Assembly (NCBI RefSeq): GCF_024700885.2
Contig: NZ_CP117016.1
Direction: 5' to 3' (one strand)
Origin: Escherichia coli
GTDB lineage: Bacteria; Pseudomonadota; Gammaproteobacteria; Enterobacterales; Enterobacteriaceae
Length of the DNA stretch: 64,000 nucleotides
In this document: positions 19,063-46,922 of the stretch, piece by piece
Position numbering within the stretch: the first letter of the stretch is position 1
Layout of the letters: each line of letters starts with the position of its first letter
Made by a program: the position numbers and the translations under genes
Notes under the pieces: generated by a model
Database searches by the model: none
The model's input: the letters and a program-made list of their open reading frames with translations, nothing else
Told to the model about the DNA's origin: nothing

Positions 19063-20415
<1,353 letters not shown>

Positions 20416-24381: not shown

Positions 24382-24559
24382 CCCATCCCAATCCCTTCAA
24401 TACCAGAAAGAAAGCGTCGAGCGGGCTTTAACGTGCGCTAACTGCGGTCAGAAGCTGCATGTGCTGGAAGTTCACGTGTGTGAGCGTTGTATATATGAAT
24501 GCTTAAATATGGTGGAACATAATGAGAAATATAAGCAACATAGACGAATTAAGAAATAA
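24374..24559 (+). CDS. ninF: NinF-like protein with 3' end displaced by an insertion
   Basis: N-terminal 35 aa ([37 protein letters not shown]) match lambda NinF as recalled; the remainder is unrelated, and the expected NinF C-terminus (CAELMSDPNSSMYEEEDDE) is encoded at 25030..25086 in another frame. Confidence 0.6.
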   Translation: MLSPSQSLQYQKESVERALTCANCGQKLHVLEVHVCERCIYECLNMVEHNEKYKQHRRIKK

Positions 24560-25031
24560 ATTATCATATGATGATGTTTTAGGTGTGCTTAGATGGAAAG
24601 TGTCTCCTTCTAATAATGTTAAGGTTGGCAGTGTTGCTGGTTACATTAGGAGTGATGGTTATAGGATGTTAACTATCGATGGTGTAATTACTTATGCTCA
24701 CCACGTTATATGGATGATAAATAATGGTGAGATTCCATTAGGGTATAAAATTGATCATATAAATGGAGTAAGGTCAGATAATAGGCTATCTAATCTTCGA
24801 TTGGTTACACACCAACAGAATGCACAGAACCAAAAGAGAAAAATAACCAATTCGTCAGGAGTGACTGGAGTATATTTCAATAAAGAGAGATGTAAGTGGA
24901 TTGCGAATATATGCGTAGATGGGCGCACCAAATATCTTGGAATATTTGCAAGCATCATTGACGCTATTGCAGAAAGGAAGAGGGCAGAAAAAGAACTGGG
25001 TTTTCATGAAAACCATGGCAGACCATAACTG
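24487..25031 (+). mobile_element. Inserted free-standing HNH endonuclease cassette inside ninF (approximate boundaries)
   Basis: AT-rich ~0.55-kb segment with its own RBS and ORF, flanked by the two halves of ninF. Confidence 0.5.
24522..25028 (+). CDS. HNH homing-type endonuclease
   Basis: 168-aa ORF with HNH motif (YKIDHINGVRSDNRLSNLRLVTHQQN) and AP2-like segment (GVTGVYFNKERCKWIANI). Confidence 0.8.
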   Translation: MRNISNIDELRNKLSYDDVLGVLRWKVSPSNNVKVGSVAGYIRSDGYRMLTIDGVITYAHHVIWMINNGEIPLGYKIDHINGVRSDNRLSNLRLVTHQQNAQNQKRKITNSSGVTGVYFNKERCKWIANICVDGRTKYLGIFASIIDAIAERKRAEKELGFHENHGRP

Positions 25032-27079: not shown

Positions 27080-27154
27080 GGGTCAGTCGTATAAAGGTCA
27101 TTACGGAAGGCTGTTAACCTTCTTATCGTGGTTCGAGTCCACGCTGTCCCGCCA
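27080..27154 (+). tRNA. tRNA-like gene, anticodon GTT (Asn-like)
   Basis: Hand-folded cloverleaf: acceptor GGGTCAG/CTGTCCC (one mismatch), anticodon stem GAAGG/CCTTC with loop CTGTTAA, T-arm CGTGG-TTCGAGT-CCACG, discriminator G and CCA. Confidence 0.5.
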
Positions 27155-27159
27155 AATAT

Positions 27160-27235
27160 GCTGGTTTAGCTCCAATGGTAGAGCAGTCGCCTTGTAAACG
27201 AATGGGTAGCGGTTCAAGTCCGTTAACCAGCACCA
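27160..27235 (+). tRNA. tRNA-like gene, anticodon TGT (Thr-like)
   Basis: Acceptor GCTGGTT/AACCAGC, canonical D-arm GCTC-CAATGGTA-GAGC, T-arm AGCGG-TTCAAGT-CCGTT, CCA end; anticodon stem has two mismatches. Confidence 0.5.
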
Positions 27236-42371: not shown

Positions 42372-44479
42372 GTTTACCCGAAGGATTTGTTCTCGATAAT
42401 CAGCCTGATAACTCACAGCTTCCTGATGGTTTTGTGCTTGATTCCCAACCAGAGCAGCAGCAATCACCTTTGGTTTCACCAGAGGAAAATTCCAGACAGG
42501 AAAATGTTGTTAATAATGCTAACGGCTTCGACCGTTTTATGTATGGCGTTCTCAGTGGATTGATGGATGTTGGTAAAGGTGTTGGTCTATTTCAGGATAT
42601 GACACCAGAAGAGCAAGCCGCAATTCAGTCTCTACAGCAGAAGTTAGCGGCAAAACCATCAACCGCACAAGATGTTGGTGAGTTCGTTGGACAAGCAGCA
42701 CCATTTGTTAGTGGTGGTGGGATTATTTCTCAGGTTCCGAAAGGGGCGGCAAGGCTGGCTGCCGCCGCAGGGCTTGGTGCTGGAGAAGGGGCTATTGTAG
42801 CCAATGGAACAAATAGCGATGTTGCTTCTGGAGCTGCTATTGGCGCTGTGGCTGGCCCTGTAGCAGAGATTGTTGGTCCAGCGCTTGGGAAGATTGCAGG
42901 AAAAATTAAAAATAGTGCCGGAGATATTTATCGCTCATCCGTAGGGATGGGTAGTAAATCATCTAAAGCAACGTTAAAGAAAGCTGCTGGCGCAATGGAC
43001 AATAAATTTATCGGCGGGCAACGAGCTATTCAAGATTTCGCCGATGAAGTTAATCCTGATTTTAACGCGATAAATGCTATTCGTGAGCTAGAACTGGAAA
43101 ATTATGCCACTCCAGGCATGATCTCTAATAATCCTGCTGTCAGGGCTCTTGATAATGCAGTGGCAAGTCTCCCTGGAACAGAGATTAGTGAGGCGCATAA
43201 GCGTTTTATTACTGAATTAGGAAGAAAAGCTGATGAAATGATAACTTCATTTGGGGGAAGCCTTGATAAGCAACTGGTTTCTGACAGGCTTGCAGATAAT
43301 TTTGATAAAACCATTTCATCATTACAAAATCAGTCAGATAACATCTACAACAAAATTGCCGAAAAGGTTCCTGTAAGAGACCGGATTGAGGCAACTAATA
43401 CATTGAATTTTTTAGAGGATTTTGCTGATGATATAGGTGGAATTGATGAATTATCTCCAATAATGAAGCGGACATTGAACCGACTTGATCCAAACACCTT
43501 GCCAACGTATGGGCGTTTAGATCTCGCTAGAAAGCAGGTTGGACAAGCTATTGGCAAAGGCTCTGGTCCATTCAAGGATGAAGAAACAGGTGTTCTTAAA
43601 AAGTTATATGCGGCTATAACAGATGACCAACAGGCTGTCGCAGAAAAATATGGCGCAGGGGAGTTATGGACGCTTGGTAAGGAGTTGGTAAAAACACGAA
43701 AATCCATTGAAGATGATGCCGTAACCGTTTTGGGTAGAAAACTTCAGCAATCAGCAATTCCAAAAGTTGAAAGTGCCGTTGTTAATATGGCAAAAGGAAA
43801 CGGTGGTGACTTTAGGCAATTAATGAAGTCAATTCCAAAGGATATGCGGCAGGAAGTTGCGCTCACCTCAATGAATAAAGCATTTACCAGCTATGCTAAA
43901 TCACCAGGTCAGCAATTAGGGGTTGATGGATTTGTAAAATGGTATAACGGAATGTCACGCAATGGGGCCAATATGAAGGCTCTCCGTGATGCTATTGGCA
44001 CAGATGCATCAAAGCGCCTTGATACGATTTATCAAGCAGCCAAAGCTATGAATAGACTCAATACTGGTAAGCAGTATGCTAGCAGCCTTGTGGATCAGCA
44101 AGTTAATAACTTCCTGAAAGAAAAGGGTAGTCTCGCAAAAATTTATGGAATAGCCTCAAAAGCTGCTGCGGCGGAAGGTATTACAAGCTTATCTGGTCTT
44201 CCTGGTGTAGGTGCAACAGGGGTGATAACGTCAGCATTGATGTCAGGGAAAACAAGCAGGATAAAGGCTGCTGATGCTCTACTGTCTTCTCCTGAGTTTA
44301 AATCAATGCTATTTCGCCTGCAAAACGCACCAGTAGACAGAGCAGAAGTGAGACGCGTAATAGAAAGGAAACTGATGCAATCTGGGGCATTTAAGAGATG
44401 GGAGAAAACCTTATCAACAGATGAAGCAAAAACCATTGCCCGCACGGGGATTATTACATGGCTCGCTAGTGACAGTTAG
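42356..44479 (+). CDS. Ejection protein (P22 gp16-like), enlarged
   Basis: 707-aa ORF at the end of the rightward morphogenesis operon. Confidence 0.6.
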
Positions 44480-44766
44480 TCAACTTTGGTTATTTTGCCT
44501 TCTTTTTCTTGATGAACTTTGCATCCATCATCTTTTGATAGCCAAACTAAAAACTTTAAAACCTTAAACACAAGTACGGCTACTGCAATGAAAGCACCAA
44601 TTGCAATTATTGCTAGCGAAATTATTTGCATTGGTGCTTTTAATGCAGGGAAAATAGTGTAAATGATCGCGAAAACAGTAATTATGAGGAACCATCGCTT
44701 CACACCAACCTCCTTAGTTTTGAGCAGGATACCAGATGGTTTGGAGTGAGATAAAGGTTTGTCCAC
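44476..44766 (-). CDS. Small membrane protein (96 aa, two predicted TM helices)
   Basis: Hydrophobic segments WFLIITVFAIIYTIF and IISLAIIAIGAFIAVAVLVF; AT-rich; distal gene of the leftward cassette. Confidence 0.5.
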   Translation of the reverse strand: MDKPLSHSKPSGILLKTKEVGVKRWFLIITVFAIIYTIFPALKAPMQIISLAIIAIGAFIAVAVLVFKVLKFLVWLSKDDGCKVHQEKEGKITKVD

Positions 44767-44830
44767 TTTTGGCTATAGCTTTATGTATCCGTGACGGATG
44801 TAATTATCACGGATGCATAAAAATTATATT

Positions 44831-45379
44831 TTAGTGTAATCTCTGATCGTCTGAATCGTGTAAGAACTCCATGAGACTTTGAACCGGAATTGGTTCTATT
44901 GATGATAATGTGAACACAGGAATATTGAGACTTTTGCAACGCTCAAACACTCCCTTATCATGAGTCCATACCTCGTCAGCATTAATTGCTCTTGCAATTG
45001 CTATTATTTGTCTGTCAAACTTAATTTTGTTTGCTGTACCTTCTGTGCTAATTTTCCTTAATTCTTTTAATGTTGGTATCGATGCGCATTCAATAGCAGC
45101 CAACTCATCAAATGATACAGTTTCGAAGCACGATAACGATTTGATAACATTCAGTTTTTCTTGTTGGTAATCTTTATGGATTCCAACTAAAAACTCCGCC
45201 AATACAGGAGTTGGAACGATGATTGTCCCGTTCTTGTTATCTATTCGATCAACAAGAGCTTCTGCTCTTCTTTTGGCATCTGGAATCTCAGAACCAAGTA
45301 TAGGGTCAGATAATCTATAATCGTGTTCTATATCTGATAGTAGGTATACCAGAATATTGGTATCTAAAATTACTCGCAA
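44831..45379 (-). CDS. PIN-domain nuclease-like protein
   Basis: 182-aa ORF MRVILDTNILVYLL... with acidic residues spaced as in PIN domains (D6, E~62, D~122, WTHDKG); start overlaps the upstream gene. Confidence 0.7.
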   Translation of the reverse strand: MRVILDTNILVYLLSDIEHDYRLSDPILGSEIPDAKRRAEALVDRIDNKNGTIIVPTPVLAEFLVGIHKDYQQEKLNVIKSLSCFETVSFDELAAIECASIPTLKELRKISTEGTANKIKFDRQIIAIARAINADEVWTHDKGVFERCKSLNIPVFTLSSIEPIPVQSLMEFLHDSDDQRLH

Positions 45380-46089
45380 TTTATCTTCCTCAGAGTCCTA
45401 AGGATTGAATCAACATCGCGTTCCTCGGACCACTGATCTCCAGGAACTTGCTTGATAGCATTAATAGCATCCTTGAGTGATGATTTTTTGAGCAATACAA
45501 ATGAAGTTATTTTTAGTTTCTTTAGCTCCCATTTGTTGTTCTTTTTTTCCCAGCACCCATCTCCTTTAACCCTAATATATTTGAATAGATGGGACCCAAG
45601 AGCTGCCGCCAAATCAGGGGTTGCCTCGCACTTGAATGTTTCACCGTTGGCTCCCTCAATACGCACAGGTATTGAGTTGTCTTTTCCGCCAACACTGTAT
45701 AGCCTTCCTTGAACTTCTGACGTTTTTGTTATGAGTAAAGGGATTGGCTCCTTTTTTACTCGCGGGAATGCGATAATGGTTGAGTGGTTTCGTCCGAGTA
45801 GTTTCGCTGAAAAACCATCATGCTCCAGTAAATTAACAATTTTTTGATACGCGGGTGATTTCTCTTTGGCTGAGAGAGAGGCCCTTGCTATGACAGCGTT
45901 ATAACAAATATCATTATCGACCCATGCATTTAAGTCAGCCGATCCTTCACTTACACAGTCGAAGTGAACAGAATCTGCAGAACCGTATAGATCTACGAGA
46001 GCAGACATATACTTGACCAACTTAGCCATTGACAGCTGGCCAGGGGTGGTTCCGTCAAGTTTTAATGTGAGTCCATTGCTTTTTTTCAT
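45370..46089 (-). CDS. Hypothetical protein (239 aa), partner of the PIN-domain gene
   Basis: ORF directly downstream of mnt on the same strand, overlapping the PIN gene by 10 nt; no recognised domain. Confidence 0.6.
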   Translation of the reverse strand: MKKSNGLTLKLDGTTPGQLSMAKLVKYMSALVDLYGSADSVHFDCVSEGSADLNAWVDNDICYNAVIARASLSAKEKSPAYQKIVNLLEHDGFSAKLLGRNHSTIIAFPRVKKEPIPLLITKTSEVQGRLYSVGGKDNSIPVRIEGANGETFKCEATPDLAAALGSHLFKYIRVKGDGCWEKKNNKWELKKLKITSFVLLKKSSLKDAINAIKQVPGDQWSEERDVDSILRTLRKINCE

Positions 46090-46138
46090 TTGTCATCACG
46101 CGAGCCAATATCGATATGGTTAACTGTACGTCATAAGC

Positions 46139-46393
46139 CTATAACTTACTTTTGCTATAAATATTTTTCAGCGTTTCAAAGACCATCTTCTTAACAACGT
46201 CAGATTGCTCATCCGCGACTCGCTCAGCTTCGTCTCGATGGCCTACAATTGATGATGGCTTTGAGAGAGCATCCTGAACGATTTGTAATAACTCAGAGTT
46301 CATTGACCTTCCGTTAGCCTCTGCTCTTAATTTCAATTTTTCTCTTACTTCCAAAGGCATACGGAAGTTAAAGTGCGGATCGTCTCTAGCCAT
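46139..46393 (-). CDS. mnt: Mnt repressor (P22 immI)
   Basis: MARDDPHFNFRMPLEVREKLKLRAEANGRSMNSELLQIVQDALSKP..., ribbon-helix-helix; matches P22 Mnt. Confidence 0.9.
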   Translation of the reverse strand: MARDDPHFNFRMPLEVREKLKLRAEANGRSMNSELLQIVQDALSKPSSIVGHRDEAERVADEQSDVVKKMVFETLKNIYSKSKL

Positions 46394-46420
46394 GCCATCA
46401 CCCCAAGTTAGTGTATTGAC

Positions 46421-46468
46421 ATGATAGAAGCACTCTACTATATTCTCAATAGGTCCACCGTGGACCTA
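46421..46468. promoter_or_regulatory. Oarc and Omnt operators with divergent Pant/Pmnt promoters
   Basis: ATGATAGAAGCACTCTACTAT (46421..46441) and near-palindrome TAGGTCCACCGTGGACCTA (46450..46468), matching P22 immI operators. Confidence 0.75.
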
Positions 46469-46483
46469 TATTGTGAGGTAAAT

Positions 46484-46642
46484 ATGAAAGGAATGAGCAA
46501 AATGCCGCAGTTCAATTTGCGGTGGCCTAAAGAAGTATTGGATTTGGTGCGCAAGGTAGCTGAAGAGAACGGGCGATCTGTTAACTCTGAGATTTATAAG
46601 CGAGTGATGGACAGCCTGAAGAGAGAGGGGATAACGGTATGA
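46484..46642 (+). CDS. arc: Arc repressor (P22 immI)
   Basis: MKGMSKMPQFNLRWPKEVLDLVRKVAEENGRSVNSEIYKRVMDSLKREG..., matches P22 Arc. Confidence 0.9.
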   Translation: MKGMSKMPQFNLRWPKEVLDLVRKVAEENGRSVNSEIYKRVMDSLKREGITV

Positions 46643-46860
46643 AGTTTATTGAGGTTGATGAGATTGGCTATGAGAATGCACTTGGTAGAGGTAAATCTTT
46701 AGTTAACGTTAATGGCATTGAGTCGATAAGGAGCGGTGAATTTACGGAGATCAGAATGATGTCAGGTGGAATCATTCCTTGCCGTGATTCAGTAGAGTCA
46801 ATCAAAGCAAGAATGAGTGGTCAGTGGCTTTATAACTACAGTGACTTACAAAAACAGTGA
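46639..46860 (+). CDS. Hypothetical protein (73 aa) between arc and ant
   Basis: ORF with overlapping start/stop to arc and to the ant upstream frame. Confidence 0.45.
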
Positions 46861-46922
46861 AGCCCCAACTGCGGGAACAGTCAGGGCTTCGGGTGTCAGT
46901 AAATCCGTGGAGAAAAACCAAC

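Follow-up and report, generated by a model that had tools for sequence, protein, structure and literature searches.

What occupies the space behind the mnt repressor gene of P22-like prophages, and is it one system or several? The question is raised by a 64,000-nucleotide (nt) stretch of Escherichia coli contig NZ_CP117016.1 (hereafter the window), in which three leftward genes follow mnt on the same strand and had been read, in a first-pass annotation, as a single toxin or abortive-infection-style cassette standing at the place of the P22 superinfection-exclusion gene sieA. Comparison with other genomes separates these genes. The two nearest to mnt, encoding a 239-amino-acid (aa) protein called here A and a 182-aa PIN-domain protein called here PIN, constitute a real, widespread and unnamed two-gene module (A-PIN), and the third, a small membrane gene, belongs to another module. 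We read A-PIN, with a confidence only slightly above even, as a lysogen-expressed, VapBC-like abortive-infection or exclusion module. All three minus-strand open reading frames (ORFs) were found directly downstream of mnt, at the coordinates first given to them:

46139-46393, minus strand: mnt, first gene of the operon, an 84-aa Arc/Mnt-family repressor (ORF; Arc-like by phrog_795/phrog_3178)
45370-46089, minus strand: gene A, 239-aa partner protein
44831-45379, minus strand: gene B (PIN), 182-aa VapC-like PIN-domain protein, TTG start at 45379
44476-44766, minus strand: membrane ORF in its longest form, 96 aa, GTG at 44766

The PIN gene overlaps gene A by 10 nt (TTGCGAGTAA), as first described and as called identically in RefSeq, and an AGGAAG Shine-Dalgarno sequence lies 5 nt upstream of the PIN start.

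Of the loci used for comparison, 17 were supplied by a genome scan, 45 by a scan of viral contigs and others by two Pseudomonas phages, to which distant PIN homologues added loci from Marinobacterium, Binatia, Providencia and a 2.7-Mb metagenomic contig; two of the contexts (P0210 and P0326) lie on short contigs and carry little information. Wherever both genes were called (67/67 loci), A precedes PIN and is directly adjacent to it, and this adjacency is kept in the pairs of Marinobacterium, Binatia and Providencia, at 25-35% identity. The spacing between A and PIN, from stop to start codon, varies from -14 to +9 nt across 56 distinct versions and is -10 in 30 of them. A terminator-like GC-rich stem followed by a T run lies 2-40 nt past the PIN stop in 32 of the 48 distinct downstream sequences, and in two loci PIN is broken while A is intact, by a frameshift (L008) or a truncation (L019). 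A profile search with A gathered 1,799 clusters at 50% identity (E<=1e-3), nearly all of 235-255 aa, and its structural matches in AFDB50 amount to hundreds of full-length entries named “uncharacterized protein” from gamma-, beta- and alpha-proteobacteria. Among phage records, megablast retrieved the pair from no sequenced E. coli or Salmonella phage of INPHARED, and tblastn with A retrieved two Pseudomonas phages only. Two very distant pairs (L070, 1627-3722; L071, 3441-4711), with 25-28% identity to A, were also observed to keep a 4-nt overlap and a strong terminator; the ORF holding the A homologue in L070 is 534 aa long, as a result either of an artefact of ORF calling or of a fusion at the N-terminus.

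The assignment of the 182-aa protein to the PIN nuclease family, already proposed in the first-pass annotation, is borne out by its Pfam match (PF01850, E=2e-7), its catalytic residues and its predicted fold. Residues D6, E62, D122 and D141 are invariant among 39 PIN homologues, with identity down to 28%, and this alignment places the last catalytic aspartate at D141 and not at D140 as originally numbered. In Foldseek, the predicted PIN half matches VapC toxins with template-modelling (TM) scores of 0.65-0.68, namely those of Shigella (5ecd/3tnd), of the F plasmid (9h6a), of Salmonella (6ifc) and VapC15 of M. tuberculosis (4chg), and several NCBI records name PIN homologues “type II toxin-antitoxin system VapC family toxin”. 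Its sequence, its catalytic residues and the fold predicted for it all make the protein a PIN of VapC type, which carries an insertion at residues ~12-35 with a conserved DPxTG and a C-terminal extension. The start codon of PIN is TTG in 42, GTG in 11 and ATG in 3 of the 56 distinct versions (non-ATG in 53/56), and looks like a conserved means to hold the nuclease below the level of its partner.

No recognisable domain had been reported in the 239-aa protein, and the Pfam scan was indeed empty even at E<=10; Pfam also gave nothing consistent on 56 diverse members of the A family, and sequence and profile searches of the PDB with A found no relative. The “CYTH” and “DUF3223” labels automatically given by UniProt to a few structural neighbours of A were discarded, as Pfam scans of the family give them no support. 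The AlphaFold model of A (predicted local distance difference test score, pLDDT, 83) comprises an N-terminal alpha/beta domain (residues 1-107), an OB fold (118-199) and two C-terminal helices; these form a tail (205-238) carrying the near-invariant R234, conserved in 96% of 147 family representatives. The best-conserved segment, QGRLYxVGGKD..PV, lies in the OB domain. When A was modelled in fusion with PIN through a 30-aa linker, using a paired alignment of 23 pairs (pLDDT 82; predicted TM score, pTM, 0.65), the pLDDT of the tail region 201-240, taken in four 10-residue blocks, rose from 72/54/48/49 to 94/93/85/65 and the pTM from 0.52 to 0.65. The model suggests that the A tail folds onto PIN as VapB tails do on VapC, and it is this gain in confidence which leads to the proposal that A would neutralise PIN via its tail.

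The PIN protein has already been flagged by a published computational model, the pair being otherwise unnamed. Table S10 of the DefensePredictor study (Science 2026, PMC13092281), which contains 1,041 clusters with an uncharacterised predicted defence protein, lists the same protein (WP_001263856.1) as a “predicted novel defense gene” in a cluster of its own, with a mean log-odds of 6.81 (cut-off 4); known defence proteins include no homologue of it, in sequence or in fold, and it is outside the cloned systems. Two PIN systems were validated there (PMC13092281): DS-3 is a single protein, and DS-5 associates the PIN ribonuclease WP_021513009.1 with a 166-aa DUF5830/AcrIF4-like partner that is no antitoxin and on which defence depends. 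In the rest of the literature, the accessions or PHROG ids occur in no paper's main text, and papers on metagenomic selection and domain-centric discovery mention no such pair; the prophage defence screen of Brenes & Laub 2025 is outside this scope.

As read from the sequences, the architecture of the module is typical of toxin-antitoxin systems, with the partner gene first, coupled translation, a weak nuclease start, a terminator of its own and decay of the nuclease with the partner retained. In the mechanism that we propose, PIN would be a VapC-like Mg2+-dependent RNase, and A would inactivate it by folding its C-terminal helical tail onto it, R234 being the candidate residue for reaching the acidic active site. 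Translational coupling and the weak TTG/GTG start of PIN would keep A in excess, and the body of A (the N-terminal alpha/beta domain and the OB fold with its conserved segment) would serve as the sensor or labile element. The trigger may be a superinfecting phage sensed via nucleic acid or a phage protein; once inhibition is lost, PIN would cut tRNA, rRNA or mRNA, translation would stop and the infection would abort. The VapC toxins nearest to PIN cleave initiator tRNA.

The same operon logic would hold for a selfish type II VapBC-like addiction module that stabilises a prophage or island and has no role against incoming phages, and both the decay of PIN with A retained and the VapC labels of several NCBI records agree with such a module. 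Addiction would, however, bring little benefit to an integrated prophage, A has three times the size of a VapB and lacks a DNA-binding domain with which to autoregulate, and the repeated placement of the pair behind lysogeny repressors of unrelated phages and beside Wadjet, restriction-modification and ShosTA resembles that of exclusion or defence genes; we consider this explanation unlikely. Another possibility is a defence system without toxin-antitoxin logic, in which PIN would depend on A as a co-factor or sensor for its activation or targeting, the OB fold of A delivering, for example, RNA or single-stranded DNA (ssDNA), and in which loss of A would end defence without toxicity. DS-5 provides a precedent for it, the strongest conservation of A falls in the OB domain and not in the tail, and OB folds of such type bind ssDNA, ssRNA or tRNA anticodons; yet the partner-first order, the weak PIN start codon and the decay of PIN only are better explained by neutralisation, and the A tail gains confidence only when PIN is present, so that we find a co-factor role distinctly unlikely.

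The contexts in which A-PIN recurs bear on its role. The next gene upstream, in the same orientation, encodes a prophage repressor in 31 of 66 loci (17 CI-like, phrog_4; 4 small helix-turn-helix, HTH, proteins; 10 Mnt), which originate from unrelated phage lineages in enterobacterial lambdoid, P22-like, Pseudomonas and Halomonas prophages, and the Providencia locus (L073) is one more case. Outside prophages, the pair is immediately followed by JetA/B/C (Wadjet) in L012 (9344-14927) and stands beside a candidate PDC-M66B, a type I HsdS/HsdM and SoFic in L013 (7021-13505); a Mrr-like nuclease is its neighbour in L022, and ShosA is ~1 kb away in L005 (10296-11231). Elsewhere the pair is found with DinI-like genes at the ends of prophages, with a lambda-J-like tail-fibre gene and, in some loci, with P4-type primase-like neighbours identified by eye and with no profile. 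The ~70 contexts, with their prophage-repressor slots and defence islands, fit the defence or toxin-antitoxin-style role first suggested for the locus, as does the scoring of PIN as defence by the published classifier. They also inform a third alternative, in which the pair serves the prophage life cycle, either by RNA processing that tunes immI or antirepressor expression or by host takeover after induction: its place within the mnt operon, with the arc-ant-sar regulatory region as a neighbour, speaks for such a role, but the pair is also found in chromosomal islands and satellites without immI and behind CI-type repressors of unrelated phages, and P22 lacks it, which makes this role very unlikely. 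As for the abortive-infection or exclusion reading, a more ambitious version of it is put forward tentatively, as a possibility that we rate below even. A-PIN may be a widespread anti-phage family (~1,800 clusters at 50% identity in gamma-, beta- and alpha-proteobacteria and beyond), whose OB-fold sensor of a phage replication product (ssDNA, RNA or a phage protein resembling single-stranded DNA-binding protein) would release the VapC-like RNase, and which would be wired behind the lysogeny repressors of several unrelated temperate phage lineages as a functional analogue of rexAB.

The DinI-like context is a third recurrent insertion context, found in enterobacterial prophages (L004, L037-L040, L043 and L051) where the pair comes after a DinI-like gene (phrog_189). 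A 77-79-aa unannotated gene separates the DinI-like gene from the pair in L004, L040 and L051, and a UmuC-type polymerase-like gene, recognised by eye, is near the pair in L004, L040 and L043.

Expression of A-PIN in the window depends on the regulatory landmarks upstream of mnt:

46421-46449, minus strand: Pmnt-like promoter, TTGAGA-17-TATCAT (consensus scan; layout as annotated in P22)
46416-46444, plus strand: Pant, divergent and overlapping Pmnt, TTGACA-17-TATATT (consensus scan)
46449-46469, no strand: perfect 10+1+10 palindrome, ATAGGTCCAC-G-GTGGACCTAT, at the position of the P22 Mnt operator (inverted-repeat search)

The two promoters match the consensus at 10/12 and 11/12 positions, respectively, and the palindrome is one which we take to be the same sequence as the P22 mnt operator. 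The window mnt is 85% identical to P22 mnt at the nucleotide level, and arc, ant and sar RNA (46856-46922, minus strand, 83.6 bits) are present in the window. Pmnt, Pant, the Mnt-operator palindrome and sar RNA confirm that the locus is on the lysogen-expressed immI side of a P22-like prophage, as the first-pass annotation had it. The Pmnt-like promoter presumably drives a mnt-A-PIN transcript. A terminator-like site was looked for in the 49-nt gap between mnt and A and none was found, and for this reason transcription of A-PIN from Pmnt in the lysogen is likely on sequence grounds. A-PIN would accordingly be a two-gene cargo operon inside the mnt transcript of the prophage and, being inside it, would be made in lysogens.

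In P22, the order is gene 16, sieA (with its own promoter), t_mnt, orf59a and mnt. From this order, the pair of the window would replace orf59a inside the mnt transcript; the cassette lies within the variable region that extends from 16 to mnt in P22, and A-PIN was not found in P22 itself. The assignment of the three genes to the slot equivalent to sieA consequently stands for the membrane gene and not for the pair, which takes the orf59a slot between mnt and t_mnt. An mBio 2024 paper on SieA, in which the place of sieA is between genes 16 and 9, is silent about a PIN. According to the comparative data, the mnt-orf59a-sieA stretch of P22-like phages corresponds to two separately exchangeable cargo slots.

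A complete P22-like prophage in E. coli MLI114, integrated between ybhC and ybhB/bioA, is 100% identical to the window over the locus stretch and has the same genes in RefSeq. The whole prophage occupies ~10450-51400 of the window (L001, L077), with ybhC on the integrase side and ybhB/bioA on the tailspike side, an interval which is the region of the lambda attachment site. The GC content is 0.39 for the cassette, 0.366 for PIN and 0.346 for the membrane gene versus 0.489 for the structural genes; the AT-richness noted at first is thus real by comparison with the structural genes but is not specific to the cassette, because the entire immI/tailspike region is also low in GC (~0.40-0.43).

What remains of the trio is the membrane gene, which is separated from PIN by two further features:

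44476-44703, minus strand: membrane gene, a separate module of 75 aa with two hydrophobic segments, in the sieA slot (RefSeq call, phrog_7294, hydropathy)
44701-44734, minus strand: mosaic junction TGGTATCCTGCTCAAAACTAAGGAGGTTGGTGTG, containing a ribosome-binding site (RBS) and the GTG start (epsilon34 alignment; P22 sequence upstream of sieA)
44780-44821, minus strand: RNA hairpin of 16 bp, beginning ~9 nt after the PIN stop, at the P22 t_mnt position, with no U tract

The membrane protein had been described as a 96-aa protein with two transmembrane segments; the two hydrophobic segments are there, and its length is most likely 75 rather than 96 aa with a start at GTG 44703, because of the AAGGAGG RBS, the RefSeq call and phrog_7294 (75 aa), which matches residues 22-96. 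The junction, GGTATCCTGC(A/T)CAAAACTAAGGAGGTTGGTGTG, is common to the 75-aa gene, P22 sieA and epsilon34 gene 14 and, from these alignments, marks where the pair ends and the module that follows begins. The idea that the membrane protein could be a short SieA was abandoned (BLASTP against P22 SieA, E=3.6), and PADLOC-DB v2.0.0 gave for the membrane ORF a chance-level 4TM match alone (E=0.1). A 29-nt inverted repeat (44583-44648, 79% complementary, 8-nt spacer) was observed in the coding part of the membrane gene, at the level of the second hydrophobic segment.

A system of three genes, with the small membrane protein acting alongside A and PIN, would account for the adjacency and common strand seen in the window and, among closely related E. 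coli prophages, in a minority, the window's closest relatives, where alone the membrane gene accompanies the pair. The membrane gene is nevertheless absent from every other A-PIN locus and lineage: in many other E. coli genomes homology ends at the junction (query 299-302, window 44698-44701), and in IMG/VR prophage contigs with the same A protein it is replaced after the junction by four other ORFs of 83, 130, 150 and 161 aa. It also occurs without A, and without the pair, in phages EC.P3 and E212, and the hairpin or terminator, like the mosaic junction, lies between it and PIN. These comparative sequence data largely refute the three-gene reading, which we regard as extremely unlikely, and the original description of the trio as one cassette and one unit does not survive them.

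The near-palindrome noted before the membrane gene is real and stronger than first described. Its arms (44780-44794 and 44807-44821) are 15 nt long and 93% complementary, and on the minus strand they fold at -17.1 kcal/mol (z=-5.3; 0/200 shuffles as stable). That it could serve as an operator in common with the gene downstream was rejected, since the homology with epsilon34 is limited to the 34-nt RBS junction and leaves the hairpin outside. A canonical intrinsic terminator is not supported either, as the hairpin has no U tract and the terminator scan gave no call. It is located where most relatives carry the terminator that follows PIN, and is probably the 3' end or a stabiliser of the mnt-A-PIN transcript.

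Several other genes of the prophage were observed. An extra 73-aa gene, with no counterpart in P22, lies between arc and ant (46639-46860, plus strand), and its end is overlapped by sar RNA on the minus strand; related E. coli prophages carry either this 73-aa protein or an unrelated 74-aa one at this position, which therefore appears to be a further exchangeable immI slot. The tRNA-Asn(GTT) and tRNA-Thr(TGT) genes just upstream of the lysis genes (27080-27235, plus strand) are possibly of interest in a prophage that also encodes a VapC-like RNase, tRNAs being frequent targets of such enzymes. Downstream of the LexA-family (c2-like) repressor (19464-20096, minus strand), an ORF at 19063-19539 (minus strand; RefSeq gives it 103 aa, the longest ORF 158 aa), whose N-terminus resembles a signal peptide, is a candidate for a second lysogen-expressed cargo gene, in the other repressor-downstream slot. 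An HNH endonuclease gene (~24522-25028, plus strand), with a NinF pseudogene fragment and a complete ninF next to it, looks from its surroundings like a homing-endonuclease insertion in the nin region; its coordinates were mapped from the MLI114 RefSeq annotation, a mapping which reproduces the tRNA coordinates exactly.

Several points weigh against the abortive-infection or exclusion reading of A-PIN. Toxicity, neutralisation and phage protection are predictions, and the predicted contact between A and PIN consists of confidence changes in a linker-fusion model only. PIN missed the VapC cut-offs of NCBIfam (NF047863, 27.1/140 bits; TIGR00028, 19.9/73.6; NF047959, 14.8/80), and the search of PDB sequences with the PIN family profile found no solved PIN chain within E=0.01. 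A is devoid of any of the DNA-binding domains typical of VapB antitoxins, and only two decayed PIN genes were seen. PADLOC-DB v2.0.0, searched with all four proteins, contains no family for A or PIN at E<=1, in agreement with the initial remark that no named system could be recognised. The overall validation rate of DefensePredictor is 45% (PMC13092281), and the DS-5 partner is not an antitoxin, so that the logic of neutralisation may not apply to A-PIN.

A-PIN is directly testable, since the cassette is only 1.3 kb and the catalytic residues are known. If validated, it would add a common two-gene family to prophage-encoded immunity, define a function for a large protein family that has no Pfam model and offer a clean case for studying the way in which infection is sensed, and a PIN RNase controlled, by a large OB-fold partner. 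In the comparative data, the same cassette of partner, PIN and terminator has also been moved to the slot downstream of the repressor in lambdoid and Pseudomonas phages, which provides a practical rule for the search for more lysogen-expressed defence genes.

Among known systems, DS-5 resembles A-PIN in being an E. coli system of two genes, in which the partner precedes a PIN effector; defence by DS-5 requires the catalytic residues of its PIN (PMC13092281). Unlike the DS-5 partner, A has 239 aa and no match to DUF5830 or any other Pfam family in 56 members, and is by sequence a distinct family. The PIN systems of PADLOC-DB v2 (for example Mokosh type II, HEC candidates) share the PIN effector, and none of their models matches A or PIN at E<=1. 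With VapBC, A-PIN shares a PIN fold with the D-E-D-D acidic set, VapC toxins as best structural matches, and a partner gene placed first and overlapping or abutting the next; from the fusion model, a partner C-terminus lying on the toxin may be a further common point. It differs from VapBC by its partner, as VapBC antitoxins are of 70-100 aa with AbrB, ribbon-helix-helix (RHH), Phd or HTH domains whereas A has 239 aa with an OB fold and an N-domain of no known family, by a 182-aa PIN with an insertion and a C-terminal extension which misses the NCBIfam VapC cut-offs, and by being usually placed, and presumably transcribed, behind a prophage repressor. P22 SieA (an inner-membrane protein of ~164 aa, types A-C) is matched in position and translation-start junction by the 75-aa gene only. 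Lambda rexAB and P22 sieA/sieB have no sequence or fold relation to the pair, and they are exclusion proteins of membrane or ion-channel type, whereas A and PIN are of soluble type; they resemble it as cargo placed beside, or co-transcribed with, a lysogeny repressor and expressed in the prophage state. Judging from gene layout, the place of rexAB in lambda, directly behind the repressor, is the one that A-PIN takes in the 31 repressor-linked loci out of 66.

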